From Protoeuglena noctilucae (lineage: Eukaryota), in assembly GCA_958009085.1 (NCBI GenBank), contig OY253670.1, positions 372,001-436,000 on the forward strand: a DNA stretch of 64,000 nt, in the 5' to 3' direction. The stretch's first letter is position 1, and every line of letters begins with the position of its first letter. Both the position numbers and the translations under genes were made by a program. This document shows positions 1,736 to 64,000 of this stretch, in pieces. Under the pieces are notes generated by a model. The model made no database searches, was not told the DNA's origin, and was given only the letters and a program-made list of their open reading frames with translations.

Positions 1736-3033
1736 TCACAGCTCGTCGGGCAACTGGTACGTCTCGATCTCCCCCGCCTTGTGCTTTGCGTTGTTCATCG
1801 TGCCCCCGCCTTGGAACAAAATCCCCTGCCCCGCGACCCACTGCGCGTTGCTGTTCTGTGGCCACATACGAGTTGCGAAAGTGGAATGGAATGCAAACAA
1901 TTCGATATAAGACGAAGGTGATAAAAGAGTACGCCACTCCCTCATCAGATTCTGACATTGCCTCAGCACAGAGATCGCGTCTCACCGCGACCGGGTGCGC
2001 AGCCACTTCCAGGTGGTGTGCCAGGGGCATGCCGTACTGCACGTTGTGCGTGATCAGGAAGCGACCAGATGCCGCGTTTTCCAAGTACACCTGCGCACCA
2101 TAAACCACCGATGCTTGTTGGCGTCACGCCCGTGCCACAACACGTTCCCACCGCCATCTCTCATTTGCCCAGAAACTCGCCTTGGACCCCAGCTTCCACT
2201 CGCCCCTGCTGTCCGTGTGCACAATCCACTCGGAGTTGTCCCGGAGGTCGCCCTCTTCAGCCTGTGGGCTCAAAGACAGACGCACCGCACTGCCGACCAG
2301 GTCCCACGCATGAGCGATGCCACGCATGATCGGTGCCATCCCAGCGCTGCGCTGCCGCGATTCCGTAACAACAATTCGCACGCTGTTGTTATCCCTGTAC
2401 CTTGATGACGCTGACTTCGTGGCTTTGGGAGAGGGGCGACGCGTGCGACGTGGACGTCAGCCATCGCCCCATCGGGAGGTGCCGGATGCGCACCGCCTGC
2501 CCGTCCTTGATCCTGCGGAATAGACGGCACGAAGCGCTATCTGTGTGACGGCAGCACATCCCGGCGCTTCCCAGCCTGTGCCATCTCGAGCAGTGCGATG
2601 TCGATCGTGCTGCAGCCGGCAGCCCCTCGCCTGTCTCCCTGACCGCACGGCTCGCTCCTGGTGCCGTGGATGGTCCAGTACGTCGATGACGTCGAAGACT
2701 CCCCCTCCATGATGCTCGACACGACCAGATTGCCGCTCCCACCTCCCCCATACGTCACCTGGGGGCATAGGCGTCGTCGGGCACTCACGCGACTGGACGG
2801 ATGCAGTTTCGGTGACTCGTGGCTGATATTGACGGCGTCGGTGCCGAGCTTCGCGGATCGGAGGCCCAGGCGCGGCTCGGCAGCCAACGCACCTCGTTGG
2901 CCAGCATCTTGACGCCGAGACCCGCATGGATCAACTTGATAGGGCTCCCACACGTCACATACGCGGTTGCTCCGAGCGTCGCAGCCGGCAGGAGCAGCAG
3001 AGAAGCCGCGGCTGCGACGCACAAGAGCGCCAT
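1736..3033 (-). CDS. SDF2: Stromal cell-derived factor 2-like MIR-domain ER protein (6 exons)
   Basis: Signal peptide MALLCVAAAASLLLLPAATLG, VTCGSPIKLIH, VTYGGGGSGN, IRHLPMGRWLTS..SPLSQSHEVS, C-terminal PDEL*. Two introns use GC donors (2630, 2180). Confidence 0.9.
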
Positions 3034-3393
3034 AGCGCTCCCGGGCTTCTGGAACCGGAGCCACTGGCGCGGAGTACGAGGCAGAGGATGCGGCTCTCGT
3101 GTGGGGCGCAGCTTCGCATTAATTTTGATAGGCGAATGGTTCTGCGCCCGCAGGACGAAGGCGGGGTAAGTTTTTTTGCGCCAGAACTCAGTGTCACAAG
3201 CACGCCAGTGATCTCCTCCTGGAGGCTCCCAGCGCATTGTCATCTCGACTGCGTTGCCAGTCCGCTACTGAAGCCACTGCCGCTATTGCCGGGAGCAGGG
3301 GGCTGTCACAGAGTGTAACTCAGCAGCGGAGCGCCAGCTAGGGCCCAAACCTGGCAGCCTCTGTTGGACGCCGCGCGCGGGCACCAGGACACG

Positions 3394-6354
3394 ATGCAGG
3401 GGGGCGCGGGGCCCGTGCTCCGGCACATATGGTCAGCCGCCGGCAGCCGCGTTGACCAGCCTCCCGCGCCGGGGGAGAGCCGCCGCGTTTTCGTAGCTCA
3501 GGCCGTTGCATCATCTCCCAATGCAGCGAATCGCACCTGCCTTTCCCGCAGCGGCGCGGTGTGGATGCGGGTGTCTAGACCCGCGTCGCTGCTCGCCCCA
3601 CCTCGCGCTCTCGCGCCGCTGGGAGGTATCCCCGCGCTGCGCCGGCCGTGCCGTGATACGTGGATTGCATGCGCAGCACAGAAGTCATCCGCTGGACTCA
3701 ACGACCGCCAAGCACGCCCCGCGAGGTGTGCAGGAGACAGCTCATGTCTCGCAGCCCCTGCGCCGCCCACGCGCCACATTTCGTCGCTCTTTTCCAACTG
3801 ACCTGCACTCTGTTGTCTTCGCAGCACACAAGCTGTCTCCTTCCTCTCGGAGCGCACCTGGCCGGACTTGGGAGTGTCCCCGACCGTCGCTGCAGCTCTG
3901 TCCCGCGCCGGTTTCCCCGCTCCCGCGCACATCCAGGCGCGCTCCGTGCCGAGGATCCTCTCCGGCGGCACGGCGGTGGTCGCCGCGGAGACAGGGTCGG
4001 GCAAACCCTCAGCTACGTGGTCCCTGTGGTGGACACGGTCGTGCGGCTCGCGGGGCCACAGCCAGCCGCGGCAGTCGACAAGCGCAACCACGACCCTTTC
4101 TCACACGGACCCAAGGCCCTCATTCTCCTCCCGACGGGCATCCTCTGCGACCAGGCACGGCATTGCAGAGGACAACAGGACAGGCGCGTTTGTGCTCGTT
4201 CGCACCGCGTGCGACACAGCCCATCTCTGGCCCGCTCCAATCCCCGCAGGTTATCGGCGTGATCCACAGCCTGGCGGGCGACGCGGGTGCGCCTCTGGTG
4301 GAGGCAGCCAAGCTGAGCTCTGCCAGCATCCCAGGGTATGTGCCTGACGTGCTTGTGACCACCCCCGCGGCACTGCTGTCCTTCTGGCGCAACGTCTCGG
4401 TGGGGTATCCCCGGGGCTGGATGTCGCGAGAAAATTTGCTGGCGTCCGTTCGAATCGTCGTGCTGGATGAGGCCGACCTGGTGCTCACGGGTGAGGCGAT
4501 TACTGAAGCCGGGGCTGGTTGCGGGTCGACAGGCTGGTGTATGTGGTGGTTCTTGCGAGACGTTGTGAGAGGTTTCTGACTATGTCCTTCTTTGCCTTGC
4601 TTCTTTCGACCATCGCTACAGCGCGATGGTAAGGCAAGCCAGGGCACGTGCAGCTGTGATGCATGCTGCAGCTCCTCACTTCCCCGTCTCTGTGTCGCTC
4701 TCCGCAGCGAGTGCGCGCGCGTCGGAGCAGGTGCTGGAGATGCTGAGGCTGGACGACCGAAGGCGCACGGCGCGCATGTGCCAGGCGCAGATGGGGATCG
4801 GGCCCGACGAGTGGGAGGCAATCAGCTCACACAAGCGGCAAGTGGCATACGACGAGGGCGTCGCGGCCTTCCTGGTGAGCAGGGGGGTATGCTTGCTGCA
4901 GGACGCCCGATGTCTGGTGGTACGCTTGCTGCATAGATGGTAGCCATCGTAATCTGGGCTTTGCCGGTTTTGTTCGCTTGCGAGCAAGCACTTGAGGGAG
5001 CGCTGCTTCGCATTCCTCGCTCCTGGTCATATCTTTCATACCGTTCCCAGGAGTTGATGGAGAGGCCGGGACGTCCCCAGGCGGAGTCGGAGCCTTTCTA
5101 CTGGTCGCGGCAGTACGTGTTCGTGGGTGCGACGATTCCGGACACGGGGGCCAAGGGGGTGGCGTCGAGCATCATGGAGCGCGCCCCGCACGCGGCCTGG
5201 ATTGAGGGCCAGGTGGGTGTGACGCGTGAGCTTGAAATTTTCGAAAAATTCGAAGCAGCGCGCAGGTCTGATGTGCGGTGACACGCTATCGATGTCCCAT
5301 GCGCGCCGCTGTGCTTCATATCGTCTGCAGGAGCTGCACCAGTCAAAGCGCGTGGTGGCGCATTCGTTTGTGCGAGTCACAGACGACACCTGGGCAGAGG
5401 AGCTGGTGCGGGCCGTCAGGGGAGATGCCACGCGGGGTCGGAATGCGAAGGCCGGGCGCGCTGGCGGTGCGGTGGGTTCGGGGGACCGAGATGGGGACCG
5501 AGAAGGCGCAGCCACGGGCGGTGACGGGGCGGGCGGGACGGGGGCGGGAGAGGAGGGCGGGGGCCGGACGATGGTGTTCGCCAAGAGCAAAGGCGGCGCG
5601 GACGAGGCCGCGATGGTGCTCGCCAGGGCCGGGTGCGATGTCCTGCTCTACCACAATGGTTTGCCGGTCGAGGAGCGGGATTCGGCACTGCGGTGAGGGG
5701 CGTGGCTGGGACGGCGGGACTTGCAACAGACATTAAGCACTTGCTGTACTGCTGCCGGCTCCACTTGCTGTACTGCTGCCGGCTCCATGATGTGAGCGCA
5801 CGGGTTACCTTGTCGACTGCCCTGTGCCCCGGGGTGACCTTCACTGCATGTTGAGTCGCGATGCCCATCACCCTTTCGCTCTCAGGGCTTTCCGCGGGAC
5901 TCCGGGCAGCCTTCTGGTGTGCACGGACTCGGCGTCGCGTGGCCTGGACATCCCAGGGGTCGATCACGTGGTGCAAGCGGACTTCGCGTCGACCGCCGTC
6001 GACTTTTTGCATCGCACGGGGCGCACCGCGCGCGCCGATCGGCCCGGGCGCGTCACGTCGCTTTATACCGACGCCGACGCGGCTCTGGCGGGGGCCATCC
6101 GTGACGCCGTGGCCGCGCACAAGCCGGTGGAGGCGTGTTTCAGCCGGAACCGCAGTTTCCGGAAGAAAGTGAAGCGCAGGGGGGAGGATTACATCAAGGA
6201 GCGCATCCACATGAGTAAGAGGATAGCTGGGATAGTAGCGGCCTCTTCGCTGGCAGGGAGCGTGCTTAAATCGCCATGCAATGTGAGCCATCCTTTTCTG
6301 GCACTGCCTGGCCCTCTGCTGGCGAACAGAAGAACCTGCCGCGCTGGTCACTGA
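3394..6354 (+). CDS. DEAD-box RNA helicase, RH22-like (organellar), with an apparent 1-nt frameshift near 4003
   Basis: AETGSGK[T][59 protein letters not shown]. Both ends are approximate. Confidence 0.85.
5739..5788. repeat. 24-bp tandem duplication in an intron
   Basis: cacttgctgtactgctgccggctc occurs twice in a row. Confidence 0.9.
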
Positions 6355-8509: not shown

Positions 8510-9805
8510 ATGGCTGACGGGGCCTCTGAATGGACGATCGTCACAACGTCCCGCAAGCGCCCCAAGCCAGCTGAGTTGAAGCGGGTGCTTCATGATGCTA
8601 GCTATGAGAAGCCAAGGGACTGCTCCGCTGAGGATTTGGCATCCAGCGTCCCCCAGGAAAGGCAGCCCTAGCATCCTCGCGCGTTTGGCCAAACCGGCAC
8701 GCCATCCACGAGCCGATAGGCCCGCCGCTGCTCTGTGCAGACGTGAATGGTTGTTATTATTCGTTGGAGATGCGCTCATAGCATGAAAGCGGCTCCCTAC
8801 GCTGCAGTACGGACCGGACGAGGTCCAGCGCCTTGTCGGCGCCGCGGTGCGCAAGGTGGAGGATTGCAAAAGAGAGGTTGAGGCACATCCGGTCCTTGCA
8901 TCAGTCGTGGAGGCCGTGAACACCGCGTTGTCGCACGGACGCACGCCGACAGGCAACGCAGCCCAGGCGGACGGCGTCGCCGGTGACCGATCGACGCGGG
9001 CCGCACAACGGCGTTTATCGATGCTCCTGTCGCCGCCTTAAATATGTGCCCGTTGCGGAGCGCAGGGACATGGGAGCACATCGAGGAGATTGTCGTGTAC
9101 GGCCTTGGGAGCCCCCACGAGTCGAGGACGTCGCGATACCAGCTCGCCCTCGTGTGCGCTCTCCAGGCGCGGGCTCCACGGTTACGTAAACCGCCCCTTC
9201 TCTTCGACCCCATCTTCAGGTATGGCTGAGCGGGGACTTAACATCAAGGGGTCAGAGCCCGGCGTCTACGGCTGTACGCTTGCTCGACTCTCTCTCTGCG
9301 ATCTCCGCGCAGCGAGGTGGACAAGGGCGTGTTATTGGCGCTGGGGATGTCGGTGATACCGGAGAACGAGAGTGGCAGGCGGCGCGTGGGTGCCACGGAG
9401 GGCGGTGTGTCGCTCTTCTACCTCGCGCACTGCGAGAGCCACATCTGCGAAGCCCTGCTCGATGCCAACTGGGAAGAGGGCGCGATCCGGAGACTCGTGT
9501 TGCTCGGCAACAGCTTCGCGACGTACCAGGACCGCTGGGCCCTGCCGTCCGCCCAGGTCGGACGTGTCCGGCCCGAAAAGGCGAGCATGGGTCTGGGGTG
9601 GGTCAGGGAGGTATGCCCGCTGCACATATGGGGGAGGGAGACCGTCGCAGTCGTAACGAGTGTCGCTGCTGGCCTCCCGCAGCTGCTGTCACTGGTGCAG
9701 AGAGGCGCGGTGGTGGAGAGGCGTGTGGACGAGTGCGGGTTCCCCGACATCTCCGCGTTCAACGACATGTCCGCTCATGCCTTCGGATGGGCGGCGGGGG
9801 TCTGA
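8510..9805 (+). CDS. SRR1: SRR1-domain protein (SENSITIVITY TO RED LIGHT REDUCED 1)
   Basis: WTIV..RKR N-terminus, IVVYGLGS, RYQLAL, LFDPIF, LFYLAHCE, LLDANW, LLGNSF, SAFNDMSAH. Confidence 0.9.
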
Positions 9806-12041: not shown

Positions 12042-13498
12042 TCACGAGTCGTCCTCCGATACGGATATGGGCCTCGCGATGGCCTCGTCGTCGGAGTCCT
12101 CGCCCTGCCCGAACGTCAGCACGGCCACCATGATGTCGATCGATGCAACCAAGCCGTCGTGGTCCAGCAGCGCGTGGACCACGTGAGCGTCCACCTCCGC
12201 CATCTCCCCCAGCGCGTAAAGGAACGGCCTGCGTGTGCGGAGAGACCGCCAGCGTTCGACTGCCGTGAGGTGGCCCCCTCATGGCCTTGGTGTGTGTATG
12301 GGCATGCGCAGCTTTCTCACGTGAGGCCGGGTCGCTCGACGGGGCTAACGACGACGACGTTGCTCTTCTCGTGCACGACCTCGAGCACCGTCCGCAGGAG
12401 CGCGGAGCAGTCGGGGCGGTAGAAGAGGTCGCACGCCACCACCACGTCGAACCGCCTGCCCCCCGCGCCACCGCCCCACGCGAGCCTCGCGGCAGTGACG
12501 CCCGGGAGGTCCCTCAGCACCTCAATGCACTTGTGACACGCGTCTGCGTGCGTGCCGGGAAGGTGCGGGGTCGCTCTAGATATGGAGCTGGAGCTGCAGA
12601 GGCAAGGGTGGCACGCTCCCCCTGCCACCGGCACAGCAGCAGCCCCTGCGTGTCACGCACCCGTGGCGAGGACTGCCCTCGGCGGCGGCATCACGGCGGC
12701 GGCGGCGGCACTAGCCAGGCCCACCCCCGCGCCGAGCTCGATCACGGTCCGGCCGGCCAGCATGTCGTGTCCCATCGGCGATGCCGCGAGGGACGCAAAC
12801 ACGATGGAGCTCACCCAGGGCGCACCGCCTGTGGAGGGACTCTGCGGGGTGGTAGCGGCGCGGGGTATGGTGTGCGGCCCGTTCGTCGGGATGCCGTTGC
12901 ATGGTGTGCTGCACATTTGTCAACGCTGGGCGGGGCGCGGGGCGTGGCGATGCCCGATGCCTCGCCTCGACGGCCTCCCGAATGTTGATCTTGGCACTCT
13001 CCGTCAGGAATCGCTTCGTGAGCTGGTCCACTCGCCGCGCATGCACGTTCCCTAAGGGGAGCGTCGTGCCATGGAAGGAAAAAACGCCCGTGACATCTGA
13101 GAGCGCAGGAGGAAGGGCGCGGGCTGATGCGATCGGAAGAACGGCATCGAGTCTGGCATGCGCGGGCCAGGAAGGCACGCACCGGCGAGGCCCTGTGGCG
13201 CCTGTCCCTGCGCCACGAGCTGCGAATGAAATGGCGAGGCCTGAACCAGCGATAGCGACGCCACTCGGTCGGGTTTGGGGACAAATGACTTGCAGGTGGA
13301 TTCCTCGTCGCTGTCTGCGGTCTCTGCGGGTGGGAAAACGCGGGAGACGTTCTGGACTCTTGGACGCCCGCGTCGCCCCACCCGGACACGATCGGCGGAT
13401 CCCCGGCCACTCCGGCCCGTAGTAGAAGCATTCAAATAGCTGAGCCGCGCTGCACCTGCTGTGGCGGCCGCTGCCGGCGTTTGGAAATCGTGGAACAT
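12042..13498 (-). CDS. Protein N-lysine methyltransferase, family 16 (METTL21/23-like)
   Basis: TGGAPWVSSIV, VIELGAGVGLAS, LAWG..FDVVVACDLFY. The 5' exons are tentative. Confidence 0.8.
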
Positions 13499-13721: not shown

Positions 13722-16354
13722 ATGGTCCTCGTCGATGAAGAAAAGGGCGACATCCCCGGCGCCCGCCGGCCCGGATGCTGGAGGCGGTGAGTAGGCTCGA
13801 AACGCGTTTGAACGGGCCTAATTTCAAAGGTTTGGTGTCTGGCCGTCACACATGTCGGCTAAGATGGCCTCCTGAGTTGTCTCAAGAGTCACAGGCATGC
13901 GACCCCCCTTGCTGAGCCCTCAGCCTCCAAAGGCCTCCTATTCCATTCCAAGTATGTTACTTGCATTCCCAGTATGAACCCGTGCGTGCGGATGGCGCTC
14001 GTGGTGGGCGGATGCCTCGTCCTCGTCGCCGCGGCGGTCTTGGTGGGGCTCGGCGCCTCGGGCATTTTGGGCGGGTCCAAAAAGGGTTCGTCTTCTTCCA
14101 CGTACGCCAAAGTCACGGCTGCCAACGCCAAAAACACCGGACGACGGCGCGCCGTGCTCGGAGCACAGGTCAACAACATCGCATGGTCGGCGGAGGCTTC
14201 GGGACTCCCCAGGTGACCACAACGGCTGTGCTGGCCCCACATCGTCCTTAATCTGGTATGTGACACCCCTGATTGGGATGGGCCGCGATGGGACCGGCGG
14301 GGCAGGCGGGCAAGGTGCGAGGTGTGCGAGGTCAATTGCACGCCACGTCACAAGCCGGCCGCCTTCGCATGAAACCTCCCTCCGCAAACTCTTACACAGG
14401 GTTCTGAACGCTGCCACTCCGACTCCGGCCTCAAGCACGCCCGGATCGACCGGCGGGCCGCCCTCCAGCGGCACGCCCCCGCCGGGCGAGCGCCCGGAGC
14501 CCTGCGTCAACTGCGCCGTCCCCGACCCGGTCGTCTTTCAGGTGAGAAAACGCAGGGATGGATCGGATTTGACTTTCACTCGCCCCAGGCAGCAAGATGT
14601 TCGCTAATGTATGCGCATGTGCACCGTTGATCCCCGCAGCGCCGCATCACATACATCTTCGTATCGGAGGAGAACGACACGTCTGTGCCCCCCGACACGC
14701 CCGATTCCGCCTACTTCCCCAGCCAAAACCCCCGCTTCGGGGGCGGCAGCTGCGTGATCCCCAACAAGTGCATGAACTTCATCGTCTACGAGGTGAGCTA
14801 GGAACATGTCGTTGTTCAAACATATTAAATGTTCATATATCATCGTTTGTAGTGTGCGCAAACCGGCCCTGGGGCATCTTATAGCCTCACCCGCTGCCCC
14901 TTCGCACGCAGAACCCCGGCTGCTGCGTGGGTGGCACCGTGTCTGCGGATACGTGCACGTTCGCCTACTCCCCCTGCTGCGCGACGACGCCCGCCGACTT
15001 CGACGCCAAGTACCCCACGCAGCAGGACATGATCAGCGCCTGCCAGGGTGGGCCCGACCAGACCGGCGGCTGGGCCCAGGCATTCCGTGACGGCACGACC
15101 CAGAGACCGAGTGCCGAGACGTGGATCGACTTCACGCAGACGTCCGCTGCCGTCACGGCCGAGCTGGGGTCCCAGGTGAGACGCGGTCGCCCTGCCGGGT
15201 ACGCCTGCCTGCGTCAGCGTGCCAGATATGCCACTGCCACGGTATGCCCTGGATACTCCCTGGCAACCCCGCCTGAGTTGGCGTGCTAGTGCCGCCCCTG
15301 TCACGTTTTGCCATGGTCTGCTGTGCCTGTGGTACGCGTGGTGGTGAGCTGTGGACCGCCCTAAGTGTCCACGCCCCATGTCGTGTTTGTCATGCTTCAC
15401 CGCCTCGCCTCTTTGCTGCCCCACAGCCCATCCCCTTCCTCCTCAAGGAAAACGAGCGCCAGTGGGCCAACCACAGCAGCGGCCAGCTACGAATGGTGGT
15501 CCTGCAGTTCGGCAACAGCAACACGGCAGCCAACCTTCGCTGGCAGTGCGGGCCCATGACGGCGCCCACCGAAGAGATCGGGGCGCAGGCGAGTGCGGTT
15601 CGGATCGCGACATGAAGTCCCGGTTGCACAGCACGAAACGGCGGCTGCACAGGCTGTGCATACAGAGCACGCGTGGTGTACAGCAATGCACTCACCCTGC
15701 ATCACCCTGCCCTGCCCACGTGCTCACGCTCACACTTGCCTCTCTGCAACCTTACCTGTACACCCATGTCCCCTTGTGTGCCCACCCCAGGCCCAAGTCA
15801 ACACGCTCTTCAGCTCCCCCATCTCCGTCCCCGAGAACATGACGGTCGTCTTTGAGCTCTCGTATGACTACACCAACTCCTGCGAGTGCTACACGACCAA
15901 GCCCTCCTGGTGGGACAACTTCACGCCCGCCGGGACCACCTACACCTACGACAAGTGAGACTCGCAATTTACTGACCGAGACGAAATGAGATGGAGACAA
16001 ACATGAGCCAGGGGTGTGGCTGTGGCTATGGCTGTGGATGTGACTGTGACTGTGAAGGTCGGCCGTTTCAACCCCTCCAACTCCAGCCCCACGTCCGCAC
16101 CCCACAGGAACAAGCGCCAGTCGGGCCACATCGGCACCGACAACTCCTCGTACTGGTGCATCTTCTGGGACCCCGTCATTACCCCCACCGCATCCCTCGT
16201 GGCCAACGCCGCGCCGACTCCGGAGCCCACCCGCCAGCACCAGTACACTGGCTCGCCCACCGCCACCGCCCCATCGGGCCCAGGCACACCGAGCGGCACC
16301 GGCGGCCCCACTTCGACGCCCGCGGCCGCGCCCACTCCCACCCCCACGCCCTGA
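13722..16354 (+). CDS. Orphan type II membrane/surface protein with Cys-rich ectodomain and Pro/Thr-rich tail (8 exons)
   Basis: Short N-tail, hydrophobic ALVVGGCLVLVAAAVLVGLGASGILG, Cys-rich exons, PTPTPTP* end. All exons join in frame, one via a GC donor at 15589. Confidence 0.75.
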
Positions 16355-16985: not shown

Positions 16986-19900
16986 TCACTTGGCCGTCGC
17001 CGCCCCCTTGGCCGCCCCCTTCTTTGTCTTGGCAGATGTCCTAAGCACTTGAAGGGCGTCAGGCCCTTCCTGTGGCCGCCCCAACGCCCCCCGACCCACC
17101 ACCACCATCGCGCGACCCCCCTTGCCACCCTTGCCGCGCCTCGCCAAAGCGTCACGCAACGCGCGGGCACGCGACTCCGCCTGCATTGCAGAGAGACGGC
17201 GGCTTCGAGAGTCACTCGTTATAAATGTGCAAACGGAGCTGCCATATCACCATCACTGACAACCCCTCTCCTCCCTGACCCTTACACACGCTACCACCAC
17301 CTCTCTCTCCTCCCATCCCTCACCAATGTCTCCACCCTCCCCTTCCCTTTCCCCTTCTTCCCCTCACGCCCCGCCCCACGCCCCGCCCCCGCCCCTCCCT
17401 GCCCAGCCGCCCCACTGTTACCCCCACCGCTGCTCCCCGCCTCCCCATCCGCGTTTCGCTTTGCTGGAGGTTCCTCGTTACCACCATTACCCCCACCCTC
17501 GCCCCGGCTCCCCACCAACTCCTTGGCGAGAGCCACGCCTCCCCTTGATGCCGTCAGCACAGCGTCGCTCCCCTCCCCGCCCTCTGCACCTGAAAAGAAG
17601 CGGGACAGGGTAGGGTTTCAGTGAGACCATTGCATGTGAGCCGAGGCACAAAGGGTCACAGCCACGGCCACAGCCACAACACATCATCCCTTACGCATGG
17701 CACCCCTCACATCCCCCACCTCCCCAACACCCCAAATCACCCCAACACCCCCTCGCCTGCTGCCCCCCCCACGTGTGCCAGTACGGTCGCCTGCGCCCCC
17801 GTGAAGAATCGATGGCTGAATCGGGGCTGCATGGGCTGGGCCAGTCGTGTAGATAGCTGGGCACGCAATGACCGTGCCTGAGCCAACGCCTTTGCGTCTG
17901 CCTTGGTGCGGGGGGAGGGGCCTGGGGTGCAAGAGTAAGAGAGAAGAGAAGTTGCAGTTGGGTTGCGGTTGCATCGGGTTGCGAGTTGCATGTGATGGGG
18001 GGTGACAAAGGAACAGTGGCACTTACAATCCACATTTTGACGCTCGCCTTTCCCATCAGCACCCACTCTCACTCACCCCCACTCCTCCCCTCACCTTCCC
18101 CGTCCCCCTCCCCCTCATCGCCCTCCACCTCAAGCCCCACCTTCCCCATCCCCACCCCCACTCCTCCCCTCACCTTCCCCGTCCCCCTCCCCCTCATCGC
18201 CCTCCACCTCAAGCCCCACCTTCCCCATCCCCACCCCCACTCCTCCCCTCACCTTCCCCGTCCCCCTCCCCCTCATCGCCCTCCACCTCCAGCCCCGCCT
18301 CCTCGGCATTGCGCCGCATCCAGTCACCCTCAGCCTTCTGCTTGCGCATGCCCCGCTCAATGTCATCCACACGCATCGCCAACGCCAAACGAGCCTTGGC
18401 CTCTGGCAGCACTGCGACAGAGGGAGGGCGATGAGTGCATCATGGGGTGATGTGTTATGGGTGGCAGAAGGGGATAAGTGTGTGGGGTGACGTGCCGCTT
18501 TGTCACCACAAGTGAGGGGTGCGTGGCACAAGGGAAGCGAGCGCAAGCGACAGAGGGGCACAACGTTGCGATGCTATGAGTGCCCACAAAACTGTCCCTT
18601 GTGAGCTGAGCCAATTCAAATCACTGTACAGTCACAGTCACTGACCTGTGGTGGACAGTCGCAGTCACTGAGTCACTAACCTGTGGGGTCTACGGGGAAC
18701 TCGGGTGGCAGGTCGTCGACGAGGTGAGCGAGGAGGGCGAGGTACCTCGGCTTGTCGGGGGGGGTGACCAGGGCCACGGAGAGACCCTCCTGCCCCGCGC
18801 GACCGGTGCGGCCGGCACGGTGCACGTAGATGTCTGCGTGGGGGGGTACATGGAGATAGATGACTGCGTTGGGTAAGTGGGGTGAGAGATGCCGATGTGT
18901 GTGGATGGGTGGCTGGCAGCTGCATGCGCGGGGAGTGCGGATGGCATGTGAAGGTAAGAAGTAGCATTGCTAATGCCGTACACTCACCCAGGCTGGCGGG
19001 CATCTGGTAGTGCACCACGCACCACACACAGACACACCACCCACACACACACACCCACCCACCACGCATGACACACTCACTCACCCAGGCTGGCGGGCAT
19101 CTGGTAGTGCACGACGCACCGCACCCCCCGGACGTCGATGCCCCTCGCCGCCACGTCCGTGGCCACGAGGACCGCGGAGGGATTCGAACCGAACCGCTCC
19201 AGGCTCCGCAGTCGCTGCCGCTGCTGCTGCTGGGCGTGGATGGCGTGGGCGGGGAGGCCCAGGATGGAGAGGAGCGCCACCACGCGCCGCACGGCCGACA
19301 CCGCGTTACAAAAGACCATCGTCCGGCCCGGGTGCAAAGCGAGGAGGTAGTAGAGCAGCGCGTCGCGGTCGCGATCGAGGCACTCGATGTGCGCCTGGTG
19401 GACCCCCGCGGCCAGGCGACGGGAGGACGTCACGTCGACGATGTCTGGCACGGCACCGCCACGCCAGATGCGCTCCACCAGGGCCTCGATCTGCAAACGC
19501 GATAACAGAAACGTGTTAAATATGTATATACAACTCAGAATATGCGTGAGCTTTCCTGCACGGCACTCGGAGCGGGCGGGTGGGAGGTCAGCAGCGAGGG
19601 CGTGTCAACTTGATCCCACCGCAGCACGCCCTCTGCGCCAGAGCGAGCCTCACGTTGGGCGCCCTGCCGCCGTATCCGCCCTTGCCGCGCTCGACTTTCT
19701 TCTTCCATGACTGCGGGAGCGTGAGCGTAGCCGAGAAGAGCATTCGCGTGACTTGCAGCCTTGCCCCCCGCCTCTTCCGGGCCAAACGCTCCTGCTCCCG
19801 CAGAACCGCGTCGCCGCGGTCCTCGTTCGGATCGACGGAGAGGAACTCCGCGTGGTCGGCGCCCCTGCAAAGCGATGATAAGGAGGGTGAGGGTCGGGGA

Positions 19901-52829: not shown

Positions 52830-55321
52830 ATGTTCGCGGGGCCTTCGGGCCTGGGGGTTTCTCGCCGCGCCTTCGCATTCGTGCGGGTGAGCGCAAGCGA
52901 GTGCTGCCTGTTATTATGCCTTACACCGTTCGGATTGCAACGCAACCCAACGCGCCCCTCCGCTCGCCGCGCAGGCCAGTCGCGGCGCACGGACGATGGT
53001 GCTCGCCACGAGTGCTCCCGGCGTCGCCCCCGCCGCGGCGCCGGCGTCGGGCCGCCTCGTGGCGCTGGAGGAGCTTGCGTTCACCAACAGCTTTCAGGCG
53101 GAGCTCCCTGCCGACCCCGAGCCCCGTTCCTTCATCCGCCAAGTGTCCGGCGCGGCCTACAGCCGTGTCCTCCCGACCCCCGCCGATGGCGAGCCCCGCC
53201 TGGTCTGCGCCTCGCGGGAGTGTGCGGAGCTATTGGGACTGGACCCTTCGGAGCTGTCGCGCCCGGAGTTCGCGCTCGTTTTCGGCGGCAGCGCGGTCTT
53301 GCCTGGTATGGACCCCTACGCGCAATGCTACGGAGGGCACCAGTTCGGCACGTGGGCGGGGCAGCTGGGCGACGGGCGCGCCATCACACTGGCGGAGGTG
53401 TCGCCCGAGGGCCGGGCTTCCCAGGAGGTGCAGCTGAAGGGAGCGGGGCAGACGCCTTACTCGCGCCGCGCGGATGGCCGCGCAGTGCTCCGATCGTCTT
53501 TGCGAGAGTTCATCTGCTCCGAGGCCATGCACCATTTGGGCGTCCCCACCACGCGCGCCCTGTGCCTGGTGGCCACGGGTGCCCCCGTCGTGCGCGATAT
53601 GTTTTACATGGGCGATCCGAAGGTCGAGCCCGGCGCAGTGACGACCCGCGTGGCGCCCAGTTTCGTGCGCTTTGGCACCTTCCAGCTCCCCGTGTCTCGC
53701 GGCGACAAGGCCCTCGCGCGGCGCGTGGCGGGGTACGTCATCCGGCGGCATTTCCCGCAGCATTGGGACGGCAAGGCGGAGATGGATGCGGAGAGCGAGA
53801 GCGAGCCCAAGGGGTATGACGTGGAGGGGTGGCTGCGGGAGGTGGCGGAGCGCACGGGGCGGCTTGTCGCAAAGTGGCAGCTGGTGAGGCAGGAGCAGTG
53901 GCTGGTCTTGAAGTGGATGGGGCGGTGGCAGGTGGCGTGGTGGCATGGGCGGGGTTGCAAGTAGCGTGTGCGGATGCGGGTGCGTGGGCTATCGGGAGGA
54001 CAAGAGCTGTGCGCTTATCTGTGTTTGCGCAGGTTGGGTTTGTCCACGGCGTGCTCAACACGGACAACATGAGCATCCTGGGAGTCACGATCGACTACGG
54101 CCCGTATGGGTTCTTGGAGGCGTTCGATCCCACCTTCACGCCCAACACGACCGATATGCCGGGGCGCAGGCGAGGTTCCGGGATGAGAATGGGGTGCAGC
54201 GATACGATGCCGACAAAGCGTGTGGCACTACAACAAACAGCGCCCCTCTCATCGGTCTCAACGTGCAGGTATGCGTTCCAGGAGCAGCCGGAGATCGGGC
54301 ACTGGAACCTGGTGATGCTGGCGAATGCGTTGATCGGGGCGCGCCTCGTGGGCAAGGCCGCCGCTGAGCGTGCCCTGGGGGCCTACTGTGACGCTTTGCA
54401 GAAGACGTACACGGCGGGCATTGCGAAGAAGATGGGGCTCAAGTGAATCGCGCAAAGCGACAAAATGGCTGTCTCTTCAGCTTGGCACTTTGGCTATGCG
54501 CAAGTGTCTGTTCGCTGTCGATGTCGCACGCTTGCGCAGCAGCTCTGCGTGGCTGCGCTTATACTTGCCTTCCCGCGCCTCTTTCACCTCGCAGGGCGTA
54601 CGACGGTGATCTGTCGGTGTCGTTCCACCAGCTCATGTACGACTCCCAGGCGGATTTCACCCGGACCTTCCGGGCATTGTCGACCGTCGACCCGGACGGG
54701 ACGGACGAGGTGCCCGAGGCGCTGCTGCGGGAGGTGATGCGGAGGGCGCCGGAGAACGAAAGCGCGGCGGCCAAGGGCAAGGGCATGCAGTCGCCGGTCG
54801 TCGAGTTGATCGCCAACGCCAGGCCGGCCGGCGGCGACGCTTCGGGGCGCACGAGCTTCGGCAGCGCGGCGAGCGGGGCGGGGGACGAGGGCGAGTGGGA
54901 GGGGCTGCGGCGGCGGTGGGCGGAGTGGGTGGCCAAGTACCGTGCGGCGCTGCGGGCGGAGGGGCGGTCCTGGGAGGAGCGGCGGAGAGAGCAGGACTCG
55001 GCCAATCCCATGTACATCCCGCGCAACTGGCTGGCGCAAGTGGCGATCGAGGCTGCCGAGGTGAGGGGCGGCAGGGTGGCGCAGGCAGGCAGGTAGGGTA
55101 GCGGGGCGCCTTGCTTTCCCTGCGCCGCAAACGCAGCTCGCGCTTCATTGCATCGCTCGGTTGCGCCGCCGCAGAAAGGGGATTATTCGCGGGTCCAGGA
55201 GCTGCACGAGGTGCTGAAGCGGCCGTACGAGGAGCAGGAGGGCCGCGAGATGTATGCGGACGTCGCGCCGCCAGAATATGCGACACGGCCGGGGGTCGTG
55301 TGCCTCTCGTGCTCGTCGTAG
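52830..55321 (+). CDS. SELENOO: Protein adenylyltransferase SelO/YdiU (Cys form)
   Basis: [69 protein letters not shown]-terminal CLSCSS*. Confidence 0.97.
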
Positions 55322-55472
55322 TTCCATCGCCGCATGCTATCGCCAGCACTTTTTCTAAGCCGTTTGCGGCTGTTTATCGGGTTGGCTGGTCCTAAGCAGT
55401 TGAACACGCATGCAGGCGTTGGTTACGCTCCGATCCATGGTCTAGCCATCACACAGCCCCTGCAGCATGACG

Positions 55473-57174
55473 CTACGTGTCCGTAGCCCTGCGCTCGACT
55501 CCGAGCATGCCCTTGGCGGCCTCATACGCGACGAAGCGCATGCCATTATGGGGCAGCACGCGCAGTGCGTTGGCAGCCATCCCACGGTAGAAGCCACGGT
55601 ACCCCTCCTGGCGCCACAGGGCCACCACAGCGGAGACCAGACCACTGGCGTGGTCCCCGGGCATCTGCATGCGCCGCCGAATCGTGTCCAGGGGATAGCA
55701 GCACAGCGTGGCTGCGGGCAAGAGAGCGAGCCACCCACTCACAATGGAATTGCAGCCAATTGACCCGCAAAGCGGCGGTGCGATCGTTGAGCGCAGCGCC
55801 GACGCGCTTTGGACCCGCTGGCGCAAGCGACGAGGCTGGCTCGCGCGCCCTCACCGATGCTCCCCGCAAGCGCCCCCAAAACAGCGTTCACAGCCACCAG
55901 CTGGTCGCCCTGGCCGCGCCGCTCGAACAGACGCAGCCCAACCGCCCCCGCCGGCCGGCCGTCTGCCCCCGCCGCGCCCCCTTCCTCGTAGACAAGCGCC
56001 TTAAGGGCGTCATAGCATGCAAAGTTGATGCCCGCGTACGGCGCGACCCCCAACATCGCCGCGGGGAGGCCCCGGTAGAACCCTCGCGCGCCCTCGGTGC
56101 GCGCTATCGACGCGGCGGTGGCCACGAGGCCTCGGCGGGACGCCCCACGAGCCACCGGCATCGCCATGCGGAGCCTCAGGGTGTCGAGAGGATGCGTGGC
56201 GGCTGTGGCTGTGACTCCCGCCAGGGACCCTGCCAACAGACGCTCCGCTGGGGACAGGTAAGGCGTGTCCCTGCCACGGGCGAACACCCTAGGGCGGAGA
56301 CGGGAGGTGGCGCATGAGAGCGGTCATCGCGGCGGTGGTGTAGCGACCGTGCACAACCGGCGCTCGCCGTGCGACTACAATCTTGCTGAGGCGATCCCGT
56401 GCGCTTCCTCGCCTCTTGAAAAAGTCGTTCGATGCCAGCTGCACTGCGGAGTAAGGGAACACGCGTGCCAGGCTGGTGGCGTTGCCCCTCCAGAGCGCCC
56501 AGACACCCTCCTCGCGATAGATTTTGGTGAGAGCTTGCCACACCCCGGTATAGGACTTGGAAGCTAGCCCTGGAGCGCAGGGAATGGGTGCGTAGGTGCG
56601 GCGGGCTGGCACAGCGGGTGGCATAACAGTCCTCGTCATGCCGATTCCTAAAAGAGTCAGCATGTTGCGGCTGCGTTGGGTGTGTGGCAAAGAGCATGGC
56701 ATGGGACCGTTTTGACGCCAATACTGCATCACATGCGCTCTGCCGCACCGCACCTGCGCTCGCCCCGACTCCCTGGACCTGGAACAGAATCTTGACGCGG
56801 TCCAGCGGAGCACTCGATGTCCTCGCAATCGCTCCTGCCAATCAGAATCGGGCGAGGACGGCCCAATTCGCAGAAAGCCCATCGCAGGACTTAGGGTGCA
56901 TGATGAACCACGCAGGAATCCCTCCTAGCAATGTCCGGCGCATGGTTGCAAGAGAAACGTAACTACCAATGCCTCAGTGTCCACGAGGAGGGTCGCGGTA
57001 GAGAGTTCGACGTGCACGAGGCCCGGCACTTCTTCCGGGCTGAAACGATGTCGAGGCAGGAGCGCAGTCACCTGCGACACCTCCTGCCAGTAGCATCTTC
57101 CAGTGGTCATGGACTGACCGAGCGGCCCGCGCCCCATCCCCAGCCTCGGCGCGCAGCACGGCGCCGTGCCCCAT
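55473..57174 (-). CDS. Mitochondrial carrier family protein, TAAC/plastid ADP,ATP carrier-like
   Basis: Three Px[DE]xx[KR] repeats (PLDRVK, PLDTLR, PLDTIRRRMQM) and YTGVWQALTKIYREEG. Confidence 0.9.
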
Positions 57175-57465: not shown

Positions 57466-58607
57466 ATGGGTTGGCTGTCGTGGCTTGGTCGCGATGCGGG
57501 CTCCGCGCCCGGCCCTAGTGACAGGGACGCCGCTGCCGGGGTGCGCGGGGGGGACGCAATGGGACAGCGGCCGCCGGGCGGGGATGGCTCAGAAGGCCCA
57601 GCGAGTCCCCGGCCGGGTCCCCGGCCCGATCAGATGCAAGGGGATGGTCTTCAGAGCAGTCGAGGGGATGGAAGCGAGGGAGATCCCCAGGAGAAGCGGC
57701 AGCTTTACTACCCCAACGGGCAGCCCATCCCAAAGGGCCCGTACGAGGACATGAGCGACCGGGCGTTCCGTGCGCTGGTCGACAGCATCATCAGCACCAA
57801 CCAACGCGTCCGGCACATCATGCAGGCGATGACGAAGGCGAGTGCGGGGGCGCGCAGGCGAGTGCAAGGCGTCGCGGTGGCAGGGGGCAGCGAAGGCGAA
57901 AGGCAGCTCCCCGGCGCACCCCCGCAGCTTGGTTGTCATGTGGACAAGAACTTCGTGCAGGTGGAGGTGTGCGACGAGGCGGTTTCCGGGGGATATCGCC
58001 CTCCGGACGGGGTTGTGCTGTGCAAGAACCACCTGAGCTTCGAGAAGGACATCGCGACCACCATGCAGGCGAGTCGGTTGCAAAGCATTATGCGCGCTTG
58101 GTCGAACCATCTCGCGTTGCGTCCTTGGTGGCAGCAGCACCGATCACGCTCCCACTCCCTGCCCCGCAGCACGAGCTCATCCACGCGTTCGACTCGTGCC
58201 GAGCGCGCAACCTGGACTGGGACAGCTGCGAGCACCACGCGTGCTCCGAGGTGCGGGCGGCCGCGCTCTCGGGGGACTGTGACTGGGACATGGAGGTCCG
58301 TCGAGGCAATTACAGCATCATCGGGCAGTGGAAGGCGAGTGGCGGCTCCGCGACTCGTTTAAAAATGGTTGATAGAATGTGCCATGGCAGACGCGCCCTC
58401 CGCCAGGGCCGTACAGCTCGAGCATTGTGGTCACTTTTTTCAACCCACACCCTGCATCATGCGCGCCCCCAGCGGTGCGTGCGGCGCCGGGCCGAGCTCT
58501 CCGTGTCGATGAAGGCGGCGTGCCAGGGTCCGCGGGCGAAGGAGGCCGTGGACGCAGTGCTGGAGAAGTGCATCAAAGACACCGCACCCTTCCACCGCAC
58601 GCCATGA
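57466..58607 (+). CDS. ATP23: Mitochondrial inner membrane protease ATP23 (4 exons)
   Basis: SGGY..VVLCKN, HELIHAFD, HHACSEVRAAALSGDC, CVRRRAELSV, CIKDTAPF. All three introns are GC-AG. Confidence 0.95.
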
Positions 58608-58701
58608 CAACATGTACTCCCAGACAGTACTCAACCCTGCTTGGTCCGCCGTGCTTCAAACGTCGATAACGACGCATGCCGCACCAACCGCGCCAATTGC
58701 C

Positions 58702-60459
58702 TTAGCCGTAGCACCGGATGGGGTCGTTGCAGCCCTTCGCCGCCGACTGGGGCCTCCCGAACCGCCCGCCCCGGGCCAGGTACTGCTGGTGGTAGGTCTC
58801 CGCGGGGCAGTAGTTGCGAATCTCCTCGACCTCCGTCACCACCGGGTCGCTGTGCTTGGCCTGCACCTTCTGGATCGCCTCCTTGGCGGCCGTGACGCGC
58901 TCCGGCTTGCTCACGTAGATGCCGCTCCGGTACTGCGTGCCGACGTCGTTGCCCTGCCGGTTGAGCTGCGTGGGGTCGTGACGGTCGAAGAACACCTGTA
59001 CCATAGAAAGGAGTAGATGCTGATGAGACACAGTGCCCAACATCGCCCTGACGCGCAGGACCGGTGGCCGTGTGCACAGCGCATGGATGGCCTGGATGGC
59101 GCATCTCGCCTCAAACAGCCGATCGAGCGTCACGGTCTTGGGGTCGTACTGCACTTGCACCACCTCCACGTGGCCCGTCTGCCCGGAGCACACCTCCTGC
59201 GTGCACACCAAGCACCGCCTCGGCTCGCGTCACACAACACCCAGCAACGCAGGTCACGTGCTGCCTACGCTTCCAACCAATTCCGGTGGAACAGAGGTGG
59301 CCACCGCATGCGGCACTGTCTCGCCCATCACTTGCACAAGCTCACACATCCACCCAAGTCTATCGATGAGACGAGGACGCGTGTCTTGCAGCGTGGCTCG
59401 TCACCTCGTACGTCGTCTGCTCCGATGACCCCTGGCAGTACCCGACCTGGGTGGACAACACCCCCGGGATGCGCTGGAATGCCAACTCGACGCCCCAGAA
59501 GCACCCGGCCCCAAACGTCACCGTCTCCATCGCAGACTTGGGCACGCTGCTGACCAGCTCGACCTGAGAGAAGCAGAGCAGACTCGGTTAGCTTTAAGAT
59601 ACATCAGTTATTGAGACGGAGGAGTGATGGACGAATACTCAGATGGGCAGTGGAACAGAGGGCTACGGCATTGGCGGGGCCAGCTATGCAGACACACGCC
59701 AACCCCCGCCGGCTCGCCTCGAACGTCAGGTCCTTCCCCGCCAGCTGGTGGTTCGCGTCCAGCGTGATGAACTCGTCATCCATGTCCGTCACCGCAGCCA
59801 CCATCCCGTTCGACAGCTGGACAGCCGCGCCCTTCTTGAGGCCCTGCGATTGCCATACGATGAGAAGCATGGCTGCTAAGCATGGCACTTGATGAAAAGC
59901 TGCAGCTCTGCCGATGATAGTGCTCCACGCAGGCACAAGCAAGCTCGCAGGTGCAGATGGGAACTCACGTCGGGGGCTTGCGACGCGGGGACCTTGGCGA
60001 CGAGGTCCTCCGACCACTCGCCGTACGCCTTCTTGGCCTCGATAGTGCGTGTGCGCTTCTCTCCTGTCCCGAGACCCATCACCAGGTCGTGGAAACCCTC
60101 GATAACGTTGCTAGACCCCACGACGAACTCCAGAGGTCCCCGGCCCCGCGACGAGTCGAACTCCGAGCCATCCGCCTGCAGTAACAGCGCCAACAGATGG
60201 TATGAAATACATACTGCCGCGGCACTGCGGCAACGCGAGGCCATCGTGAGCCCCCGATGCGAGAGACGGCGGAACGCACCAGGGTGCCCGTGTAATGGAC
60301 GCGAACGAAGTCCCCTGCCTCCACGCCAGCGTACACAACCGCGTTGCGCTTCCCCCCGACCCGGCGAATGCTCAGCGGCGACGCAGCGACGGAGGGGCGG
60401 GGCGCAGAGGCCGCTGCGGGCGCCAGGCAACATATGGCTGTCCCCGCCTCGCCAGGCAT
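58702..60459 (-). CDS. SlyD/FkpB-type FKBP prolyl isomerase fused to methionine sulfoxide reductase A
   Basis: VRVHYTGTL|ADGSEFDSS..LDANHQLAGKDLTFE|VEL runs in frame into FGAGCFWGVE, GHVEVV, QGNDVGTQYRSGIY, AETYHQQYL, IRCYG*. Confidence 0.92.
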
Positions 60460-60842: not shown

Positions 60843-62406
60843 TCATGGCATGAGGGCGACAACGACCGCCTCCCTCGGCCGGTGTTGCCGGAGCTTGACC
60901 CCCGCGAGAGCGAGCAGCGTCCTGGATGCCTCGTAAGCCGGATCCGCGCGCAAGCCACCCTTGGTCGGCGTCTGCGTCCAAGGAGAGAGCATGAACGTGC
61001 TGTGGCCCCACCGTGGTCGCCGCAGGGCAAGGGCCGCGCGATCGAGGTCCTTGCAAGCCCCGCAGGCATGCGCTTGAGATGCATCCGCATACGTGCTTCG
61101 TGCTGTCCATCCCTCACCATCGAGTCGCGGAGGGACATTACGTTCTTGTCCTCGTAGAAAACGACCTCCACCAGTCCCGACTGGATGATGAGCTTGGCGC
61201 ATTCGTTGCAGGGGAACATGGTCACGAAGATACGGGCCCCAGCGAGGCTGGCCGAGTTCTACGAGAACGGTGCACAGGACAACGATTGTGACACGCCGTC
61301 GCCCTACCCAGGGTCAGCGCAGGAAAGACATCCCAGCATTGGACTTGAAACGCAACATCTCGCCAGCTTGCGTCCCTCCCGCCTCGCCTTGTTCATGATC
61401 GCGTTCATCTCTGCGTGACACACGTACGGGTACTTGGTCTCGAGAGGGTTGTTGCCCTGGGACGCCTTAGACCAGGGGAGGTGCTCGTCGGGGCAACCTC
61501 GAGGGAAGCCGTTGTATCCAATCCCGAGAATGACGTTCTCTGCAGCCACCATGCCTCGCCAAGGCTCGTTACGGCTGCCTTGGCAAGCAGGGGGGTGCCG
61601 GCCCAGCAGACCAGACAGGCTCCGGGGCCGCCCTGCGACTCCGCGCGCTGTCGCGAGTCACCTGGAGACACGATGCACGCCCCGACCTGCTTGTTGGGGT
61701 CCTTCGACCGCTGGGCTGACAGAAACGCAATGGCCATGAAGTAATCGTCCCACACCAGGTACCCCCCCCGAGGCCTGGGGTCGTACGGATCGCTGCATTT
61801 GTCCGCTCGGAGACTCGAGGCCGTCCGCACGCCCCCCGTGCCACCGCACTGCGCCACGGGGCACCCCACACACCCCGCGCCACTGCAAGGCCCCTCTGGG
61901 CCGGGGCCGGCCCCGCCGTCCCCACGCCCCTCCTCCGTACCCACGGCCCCCCAGAGTACCCGCGCTGCCTCCGCCATGACGTCATCGCCGACCGTGCGGC
62001 GAGCTGGCGATGCTGAGCACGCCTCCACAGAGACCGTGTCCGAAGGCGACGGCGACGCTGTCGATGGTGTGCAGTCACTGCACGCGTCTCTTCGCCGGAT
62101 GGCATCGCAGTCGCATCGCACGATGGCCTCGCTCGGGAGCGGCTGTCTGTCGATGGGTCTGTCGGGCGTCGCGGGCTTCGTACGCACAGCCGCCCCGGGA
62201 GGCGCCTCAGCGGCTGCAAGTTCCAGCGCCACGCACCCTGCGATGGACGTAAACGTCGATGGAGATGCTGGGTAGGTCAATGCAGCCGCCGCTGCGGCTT
62301 GCCCGGGACGGGCTCGACACACGCAACCACAAAGTGAACCGGGAGGCGCGAAACGCACCTGGAGTCGCGACGCGGTCGGCTTCTGCAGGGGCGCTTCGCT
62401 TAGCAT
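60843..62406 (-). CDS. DCTD: dCMP deaminase with an N-terminal extension
   Basis: [45 protein letters not shown]. The start is uncertain. Confidence 0.92.
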
Positions 62407-63143
62407 ATTCTCTGCACATTGCAAAGGTAGCGAACCCTGCACGTGGTCGGAGAACGCGGAATTTGGGTCTCCATGCGTGTGGCGCAGACGGCGGGCGCCG
62501 CGAGCGCCGCCACGTCCCCGGCAGCCCTCCGCGGGGTTTGAGAGCGAGCAAGACGAGCTAAATATGTTGGCAACCAAATCTTGGGCGCAGCCGACGGGAT
62601 TTTCGAATGGCATGGGCCCTAGTCCATGACAGCTGCCACGGCCGCTCCTCGGCCCAGCGTGCCGCCAGCATGCCGCGGACGAGGCAACCGCTCGGTGACG
62701 AGTCCATCATCGCAGCAGGAGCTTGGAACGGCTCACCAGTGACGACCCCAGCCATGACCGCCATGGGCAAGAGCGTGCCAGCGCCCAGAGACCACCCGGC
62801 CCCCGTTGGCCCCACCATATTCACGACTCTTAGATGCGATGTGAGCTGAGGCAGGATGACCAGGGAGACGGCTGCGCGAGACACACCAAAAGGCGCAACG
62901 TGGCAACGTGCCAAGGGCGCTGGCAGGCAGTGTGCAACGTAGGCGAGTTGCCAGGGCTATGACGTCCCGCGCGCGATGAATGAGTATTGCATGGATGGCT
63001 CCACGAGTGCATGCGCGAGCCAGATAGCTTTTCGCCAGTGGAACATGCCAGACGATGCCTGCGCTCACAAAGCGCCCACATCCCGCCACGAAGTCAATCA
63101 GTCGCACCTCTTTCTCGCGCTCACGTCGACTTCCTGGTCTGCG

Positions 63144-64000
63144 ATGGCGCGCGTCTTGCAGCAGCAGGCGGCGGGGCTGCAGCGGGATTTCGGAGCGGTG
63201 CTGCACTCGCTCTCGCAGCTCACGTCGGCCGTTCACGAGCTGGGAAGACGCTCTGATGCCATCTCTCTCGGCGTTCAAGCGTGCGTGCGCGAAATGTGCG
63301 GCTTTTCGCTCATGTCTTTGGCACTGCGGTTGCTCGCAACGAGGAAGTTCTCCGCTCCGCTGATGCGCAGGTTTGATTTGCCAGACACCCAAGAGCGCGG
63401 CGTTCAAGCGTCGCTCGAGGCAGGCCCCTCCGCTGGACTCCCCACGCGCATAACTGTCGGCGCGCCGTTCCGCTTCCAAAAGTCGGACCGCCGGGTCAAC
63501 TGGGCGCGGCTGCGCTCTCTGGACCTCGCGGAGATCCATCGCGAGACGGACGTGCAGGGGCTGATGAGCGCCTTGGAAGGCAAGGGGTCGAACACACTTC
63601 GACACTCGCAATTTCCCTTCTGAGCGTCGAGGCGCGTCCGGGCCCGTGCCGACGATCTTTAGCCCCCGAAAGCTGCCGCAGATTTCGCGTACGGGGACCT
63701 GGAGCGCGAGAGCACGTTCAACCTGACGGAGGCGTCCCTCTTGCGCCTGTGCCGGGCGCAGCAGATGGCAATTCAGTACCTGTTGCACGAGAGGCAGCAA
63801 GCGACGGCGGAGGCGCTTCAGATCAGCGACGGGCACGCGCGCATGGAGGCGTATTTGGACCGGCTGGATGCGGCGGGGCAGGCGGTGCATCTCGACAAGC
63901 TGTCGCAGCAAGTGTCAGCGATGGAGGACGCCCTGCGGCATTTGAGCGACGGCGATATGCAGGCGCTGGCCGGGGAGTTGGCGGCGGTGGGCGCTGCGGG
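63144..64000 (+). CDS. DZIP1/Iguana-like N-terminal domain protein (partial, runs off the window)
   Basis: FRFQKSDRRVNWARL..D...RETDV..L, FAYGDLE, LCRAQQMAIQYLLH, then a coiled coil. Confidence 0.8.

Follow-up and report, generated by a model that had tools for sequence, protein, structure and literature searches.

Introns that begin with GC are a minor class of U2-type introns in the best-studied genomes, where the GC-AG subtype makes up 0.4-0.9% of the total in five model species (Sheth et al., 2006; PMC1557818). According to the same source, the rest of the GC donor fits the consensus better, which offsets the mismatch of position +2 with the U1 small nuclear RNA (snRNA). In species of high G+C content GC-AG introns are described as 'extraordinarily abundant' (Iwata and Gotoh, 2011; PMC3033335), with shares of 39.6% in Aureococcus, 22.2% in Micromonas pusilla CCMP1545 (65.9% G+C) and 7.7% in Chlorella. 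Similarly, about 60% of the donors of the haptophyte Emiliania huxleyi are GC, as checked by reverse transcription PCR (Feldmesser et al., 2014; PMC4028052), and 14-17% of introns are GC-AG in the pelagophytes Aureococcus anophagefferens and Pelagomonas calceolata (2024 preprint, 10.1101/2024.10.30.620910). Both PMC3033335 and the preprint ascribe the stramenopile excess to G+C content. Here we analyse GC-AG introns in a stretch of 64,000 bases of genomic DNA (the window), which has 65% G+C (63-69% in each 4-kb bin) and for which an earlier note, made from the sequence alone, had proposed 22 GC 5' splice sites. That note named dinoflagellates as a known exception to the rarity of GC-AG introns, an incomplete background, since GC-rich algae with 8-60% GC-AG introns were published in 2011 and 2014 (PMC3033335, PMC4028052). 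A high GC-AG share is thus already described for other GC-rich algae, and what the window adds is an intron-dense green alga. Our literature searches turned up no core green alga other than Micromonas and Chlorella for which GC-AG introns are reported as abundant.

The closest described case is Micromonas pusilla CCMP1545, which is likewise a green alga and resembles the window in G+C content (65.9% versus 65%) and in GC-AG share (22.2% versus 26 of 100 introns; PMC3033335). It is nevertheless another organism, with no Micromonas protein among the best NOG1 matches listed, and the window is far more intron-dense (nine introns in NOG1), its rate being that of one window and not of a genome. Aureococcus and Pelagomonas share with the window a high G+C content and a GC-AG proportion of 14-40%, but they are stramenopiles with less than one intron per gene, as against three to nine here (PMC3033335, 10.1101/2024.10.30.620910). 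Emiliania has a genome of 65% G+C and keeps AG acceptors, as the window does, whereas GC is its majority donor and GT is the majority donor here (74 of 100; PMC4028052). The U2-type GC-AG introns of animals and plants also start with GC, end in AG and match more strongly at the other positions that pair with U1 (PMC1557818), but the frequency in the window is about 30 times higher.

GC donors fixed by spliced proteins and homology

At all 22 proposed positions, on the strand given for each, the bases read AG|GC, and none of the 22 was refuted. Re-reading also returns the proposed split into 19 GCGAG, two GCAAG and one GCACG. We graded the support for splicing in four tiers: spliced proteins for six donors (tier A; 57838, 58069, 58335, 26789, 24542 and 22924), residue-exact homology for four (tier B; 59109, 63580, 61387 and 54170), a gene parser for eight (tier C; 2180, 9581, 12965, 15589, 31796, 40290, 47771 and 59717) and reading of the frame for four (tier D; 2630, 4155, 17756 and 56412), with weak homology support for 56412 and 2630. 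The weakest of the 22 is 4155 (GCACGG, flank score 1.84). Four AG|GCGAG donors outside the earlier list (37892, 41723, 42903 and 44577) come from the parser. The assertion that GC-AG introns are routine here holds, with six proven by spliced proteins and 26 GC-AG introns among 100 in a curated set described below. Every one of these 26 starts with GC and ends in AG. The U12 type of GC-AG intron is marked by a U12 branch site together with GCATCC as its donor (PMC1557818); GCATCC is absent among the donors of the window, all of which are GCGAG, GCAAG or GCACG. The GC introns of the window are, in our view, probably spliceosomal introns of the ordinary U2 type that belong to its GC-AG subtype.

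A public protein collection was searched for proteins identical to the window, and every donor-acceptor pair that reproduces each gap was enumerated. Three proteins are 100% identical to the window. One is ATP23 (P0001, 214 amino acids, from the sources jgi and Logan), which maps exactly in four blocks. The others are NOG1 (P0057, 691 amino acids), mapping exactly in ten blocks and encoded by a contig of 3364 nucleotides (nt) against a genomic span of 4671 nt, and a leucine-rich repeat (LRR) protein (P0177, 387 amino acids), mapping exactly in seven blocks, with a contig of 1826 nt against 2010 nt. The contigs of P0057 and P0177 are shorter than their genomic loci and are therefore spliced, and the exact mapping of all three proteins requires the removal of introns. 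Together they give 18 junctions with a single GY-AG solution each, 12 GT and six GC, and all six GC junctions are donors on the earlier list. These junctions show that GC-AG introns are removed from messenger RNA. Absence from the mature message is established by spliced proteins for six of the 26 GC introns, and residue-exact homology indicates it for four more.

On the forward strand, ATP23 (peptidase M76) contains three of the proven introns. Intron 1 (57838..57927, AAG|GCGAGT, 90 nt, stop-free and in frame) has one GY-AG solution against P0001; intron 2 (58069..58169, CAG|GCGAGT, 101 nt) follows from the exact mapping of P0001 and leaves the Pfam family Peptidase_M76 continuous at positions 73|74; intron 3 (58335..58472, AAG|GCGAGT, 138 nt, stop-free and in frame) again follows from the exact mapping of P0001. 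Introns 1 and 3 are multiples of three in length, so that their retention would give an in-frame insertion. Both are absent from P0001 and from the related proteins P0003 and P0004. The ATP23 of a further relative, P0002 (87% identical in the query exon), keeps the two orthologous introns in frame, and both retained segments start with valine. As valine is always coded GTN, the protein implies that the relative has GT where the window has GC, and we infer a turnover between GT and GC donors at ATP23 between the two. A second AG|GCGAG lies 20 nt inside the intron that starts at 57838 (at 57858), and the spliced protein places the cut at the upstream copy. The other three proven introns lie on the reverse strand. 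NOG1 has a GC donor at its ninth intron (26494..26789, CAG|GCGAGT; exact mapping of P0057), its remaining eight introns being GT-AG, and the LRR (RNI-like) gene has GC donors at intron 1 (24380..24542, AAG|GCGAGA) and intron 6 (22764..22924, CAG|GCAAGG), both from the exact mapping of P0177.

Homology fixes four further donors to the residue. Within the MsrA region of an apparent FKBP-MsrA gene (58996..59109, reverse strand, GAG|GCGAGA; also chosen by the parser), the upstream exon stops at position 69 of Pfam PMSR and the following exon begins at position 70. In the dCMP deaminase gene (61259..61387, reverse strand, AAG|GCGAGG), the upstream exon matches human dCMP deaminase (2W4L) through chain residue 90, precisely at the proposed donor, and the downstream exon begins at residue 91. 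The parser preferred a second GC donor, 61363, which lies 24 nt further on; this choice is wrong and would add eight residues. In the Dzip-like gene (63580..63681, forward strand, AAG|GCAAGG, phase 1; parser), the match to Pfam Dzip-like_N continues unbroken over the junction from position 37 to position 39, with the split codon as position 38. In SelO (54170..54268, forward strand, CAG|GCGAGG, phase 2; parser), profile positions 241-286 are exactly accounted for by the middle exon, which has 45 codons and one split codon, a fit by exon length. A weak GC donor that the parser chose at 53935 in the same gene was rejected in favour of the GT at 53884, which agrees with the SelO profile and starts the first intron. 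Without GC donors, ATP23, dCMP deaminase, SelO and MsrA are not rebuildable.

Share and anatomy of GC donors

The parser is a dynamic-programming exon-chain finder that combines codon log-odds with matrices for acceptors and donors, the donor matrix being trained on GT donors only and neutral at +2. It recovers 16 of the 18 proven introns, missing a NOG1 donor that is duplicated within its own intron and one LRR intron, and chooses 17 of the 22 proposed GC donors. The summed gene score is 1812 when GC is allowed and drops by 227 to 1585 when only GT is; allowing GA or GG instead gives 1648 or 1664. Strong sites of the AG|GCGAG type are used by the parser in 20 of 36 cases, versus one of nine for the GA control and two of 19 for the GG control (Fisher p=2e-4). 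In the control runs the parser takes 15 GA or 23 GG donors when these are permitted; these picks are weak, and many fall within some 30 nt of a GC donor, at places that call for an intron but offer no GT. Weak GC calls of the parser were discarded unless other evidence stood behind them, as it does for 22924 and 63580, and the weak or antisense calls at 22588, 23328, 31069, 32712, 33949, 38958, 44493, 48546 and 50747 were dropped.

The curated set brings together the proven and homology-checked junctions, what the parser called on the dominant strand, and a small number of exons read by hand. Of its 100 introns, 74 have GT and 26 have GC donors; the raw parser output has 31 GC among 109. About a quarter of the introns in this window are therefore GC-AG, and the share of about 15% first put forward is too low (nearer 25%), while the accompanying count of 120-140 introns by eye exceeds what was modelled in either set.

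The two donor classes differ in how closely they keep to the consensus. On both strands of the window, AGGCGAG occurs 36 times and AGGTGAG 31 times. Donors in the curated models account for 23 of the 36 AGGCGAG occurrences, and the other 13 are intronic, antisense or intergenic, with none in a sense exon. The GT donors keep only loosely to (A)G|GTGAG, and 37 of the 74 have AG at -2/-1, as compared with 26 of 26 GC donors (p=6.5e-7, curated set). After the cut, position +3 of the GC donors is a purine, +4 is A in 25 of 26 and +5 is G in all 26; RAG at +3 to +5 is present in 25 of 26 GC donors versus 47 of 74 GT donors, and the mean flank score is 5.5 versus 3.6 (p=3e-9). These comparisons show that GC donors match the donor consensus much more strictly than GT donors do, part of the contrast arising because weak GC donors are hard to recognise. 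The proposal that a strict exonic AG compensates for the mismatch at +2 is supported by the invariant AG together with the near-perfect +3 to +5. The introns themselves are alike, with a median length of 124 nt for GC and 148 nt for GT introns and a similar G+C content (63%).

Origin of the GC-AG excess

We propose that standard U1/U6 recognition would tolerate a lone C at +2 as long as pairing is good elsewhere in the donor. Strong G+C pressure would then replace T by C at +2 in any donor whose remaining positions are strong enough, and GC donors would accumulate; special splicing machinery would not be required. The canonical 5' end of U1 snRNA is ACUUACCUG. We think it probable that the GC-AG introns of the window are ordinary U2-type introns, accumulated by G+C pressure under standard U1/U6 recognition. 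Several points weigh against this account and against the figures behind it. The G+C pressure is a cause inferred from other species, and Micromonas RCC299, at 64% G+C, is reported with only 2.7% GC-AG introns (PMC3033335). A single window gives no basis for a genome-wide rate, and the six GC among 18 proven junctions are a biased rate, as the three genes were picked for holding proposed sites. Parser or frame reading underlies 12 of the 22 proposed donors and all four of the added ones. The parser over-calls, with false GC donors at 53935 and 61363, and it used ten GC donors with a flank score below 5, about the rate of the controls. Selection of the curated set, in part by consensus strength, inflates its 26 of 26 for AG, and in the proven subset the difference at -2/-1 (six of six GC versus eight of 12 GT donors) is not significant (p=0.25).

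The earlier note had explained the excess by a relaxed recognition of +2, with the exonic AG as compensation. Its strict AG is supported, as described above; the variant U1 or altered U1C, Luc7 or U6 contacts that it invoked are neither supported nor needed. The variant U1 lacks support because in Micromonas pusilla and Aureococcus, the two algae examined with a like excess, the putative U1 is reported to have a canonical 5' end (PMC3033335), and altered contacts are not needed because stronger flanks are a general rule for U2-type GC-AG introns (PMC1557818). A lineage-specific change in 5' splice-site recognition, whether through a U1 variant that pairs with C at +2, through U1C, Luc7 or U6 contacts or through a base modification, could still be argued from the rate of 26 in 100, which exceeds the plant and animal values about 20-fold (PMC1557818, PMC6310983), and from Micromonas RCC299, which G+C alone leaves unexplained. 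For Micromonas pusilla and Aureococcus, PMC3033335 also leaves room for differences in the proteins of the U1 snRNP (small nuclear ribonucleoprotein) or in base modifications. We consider such a change unlikely nonetheless. The stricter consensus of GC donors is expected if they mismatch an ordinary U1 but not if U1 were adapted to GC, and the window itself has nothing to say on U1, as an Rfam scan of its 64 kb returned no matches and no snRNA or U1 gene. It is similarly improbable that a second U1, a modified base in U1 or U6, or a changed U1C or Luc7 makes C at +2 nearly equal to T given an exonic AG. If true, such a change would make the excess more than a passive outcome of G+C pressure, and it would mean that a donor code of two classes had evolved separately in several GC-rich algae.

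Modelling could have forced conserved proteins together where the true donors are nearby GT sites or where the segments are not introns, and the false parser calls at 53935 and 61363, the acceptance of 15 GA or 23 GG control donors, the four sites placed by frame reading and the poor consensus of 4155 all lend this some weight. It is refuted for ten sites, six fixed by spliced proteins without any GT-AG solution and four by residue-exact homology, and the GT-only score falls by 227, with strong GC sites used in 20 of 36 cases versus three of 28 in the control classes, so that we give an artefact very little credence. Another possible source is a mobile introner family with a GC donor of its own, of which the GC-AG introns would be copies. 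The donors look alike past +6 (GCGAGTG/GCGAGTCG), and introners are known in Micromonas and Aureococcus, which counts in favour of this idea. An all-against-all comparison of the 100 curated introns nevertheless gives no match between different introns at E<=1e-3, and the GC introns match the GT introns in length and composition; as the introns share no sequence family, they are not a mobile family, and this origin seems to us slightly less credible again. Errors of assembly or base calling that changed T to C at +2 are the least credible source and close to negligible. An apparent one-base frameshift near 3990, in a helicase motif, does show that the assembly is not flawless, but random errors would not favour AG before the cut and GAG after it, and four DNA runs, which may include the source data, contain all sampled words of 54001-64000.

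Accumulation of ordinary GC-AG introns under G+C pressure opens no new mechanism, and the value of the finding lies mainly in annotation and in donor turnover. With gene finders that allow only GT, about one exon junction in four of this genome would come out broken or truncated, just as the GT-only assumption made the first Emiliania gene models wrong (PMC4028052). The window adds to the short list of GC-rich algae with many GC-AG introns and supports the link between base composition and donor type. With its many introns per gene, it is also a good system in which to measure GT-to-GC turnover.

Other introns, gene content and host

The remaining GC-AG introns come from the parser or from reading of the frame, and several fall in genes of recognisable family. 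At the end of the FKBP domain (59564..59717, reverse strand, GAG|GCGAGC; parser), the exon upstream of 59717 stops where SlyD-type FKBPs still miss their last strand, and the exon after the intron holds a short FKBP continuation followed directly by the MsrA active-site region. SlyD-type FKBP and MsrA domains thus appear as one fused gene at 58702-60413 on the reverse strand. In the mitochondrial carrier gene, frame reading suggests an intron that the parser did not pick (56289..56412, reverse strand, GAG|GCGAGG, phase 2, acceptor TAG); Pfam Mito_carr reaches position 89 of 96 upstream of 56412 and restarts at residue 12 of the extended downstream exon. An SDF2-like (MIR domain) gene on the reverse strand has an intron from frame reading (2513..2630, CAG|GCGAGG, phase 2), downstream of which the exon aligns from its first residue to residue 80 of the SDF2-like protein 3MAL, and a second from the parser (2091..2180, AAG|GCGAGT). 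Frame reading also points to introns in the first DEAD-box helicase (4155..4249, forward strand, CAG|GCACGG) and in the tail of the second (17590..17756, reverse strand, CAG|GCGAGG), both of which are proposed. In the first helicase there is a shift of one base in the frame inside Walker A (GSGK), at about 3985-4000 on the forward strand, which suggests a homopolymer assembly error or a broken gene.

The parser places the other introns. On the forward strand these are in SRR1 (9581..9682, AAG|GCGAGC), where the SRR1 profile match stops before the donor, in two genes of unnamed family (15589..15790, CAG|GCGAGT; 31796..31919, AAG|GCGAGG) and in a gene like poly(A) polymerases and CCA enzymes (47771..48127, CAG|GCGAGT); a second AG|GCGAG lies at 47820, 49 nt inside the last of these. 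On the reverse strand they are in Methyltransf_16 (12842..12965, GAG|GCGAGG) and in a multi-pass membrane protein gene (40162..40290, AAG|GCGAGT), along with the four additional introns at 37798..37892 (GAG|GCGAGT), 41633..41723 (GAG|GCGAGG), 42720..42903 (AAG|GCGAGG) and 44485..44577 (CAG|GCGAGT). Pfam gave no match for the exons upstream of 4155, downstream of 9581, upstream of 12965 and downstream of 47771, and PDB searches with the SDF2-like and methyltransferase exons were mostly uninformative, the 3MAL alignment at 2630 excepted. Exact-pattern scans of metagenome contigs found no match for the exon beside 42903 or for that between 59717 and 59404. A profile built from eight unrelated exon peptides recovered only the LRR gene among the protein matches listed, and a similar profile run against representatives returned four unspliced open reading frames from genomes and one relative at 64%, which carry no information on splicing.

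Exons in the window are short and densely packed, with introns of about 80-460 nt and three to nine introns per gene, NOG1 having nine; the window has one gap, of 200 N, at 36849. Pfam matches on coding-like segments name about 17 genes, including two DEAD-box helicases, SRR1, an actin-related protein, a Methyltransf_16 enzyme, EAF6, the LRR protein and NOG1, and further snurportin, SelO, the mitochondrial carrier, ATP23, MsrA, FKBP, dCMP deaminase and a Dzip-like protein. Among the matches listed, the named proteins nearest to NOG1 and ATP23 are green-algal, and full-length NOG1 has 66% identity to Parachlorella and 60-64% to Pedinophyceae, Volvox, Chlorella and others. Judged by these proteins, the host is a green alga without a close annotated relative among the matches listed. 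Marine metatranscriptome runs contain 35-45% of the sampled words of 54001-64000, a proportion that would agree with exons only but from which we draw no conclusion, habitat included.

Two neighbouring genes for multi-pass membrane proteins on the reverse strand (33630-36689 and 37639-40790) have similar exon peptides and no Pfam family, and look like tandem paralogues; the parser joined them as one gene of 14 exons across the region of the N gap. We further note tandem arrays at the 5' ends of introns, in NOG1 (27824-28103, 28449-28533 and 28946-29204, reverse strand) and in the tail of a DEAD-box helicase (18074-18300, reverse strand), with periods of 106, 40, 79 and 79 and 2.3-3.3 copies, which repeat the exon end along with the GT donor. 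In six of the 100 curated introns the intron's own 16-base exon end plus donor recurs in extra copies, versus none in about 1000 control comparisons. One such duplicated copy misled the parser in NOG1, where it took 27960 instead of 28065.

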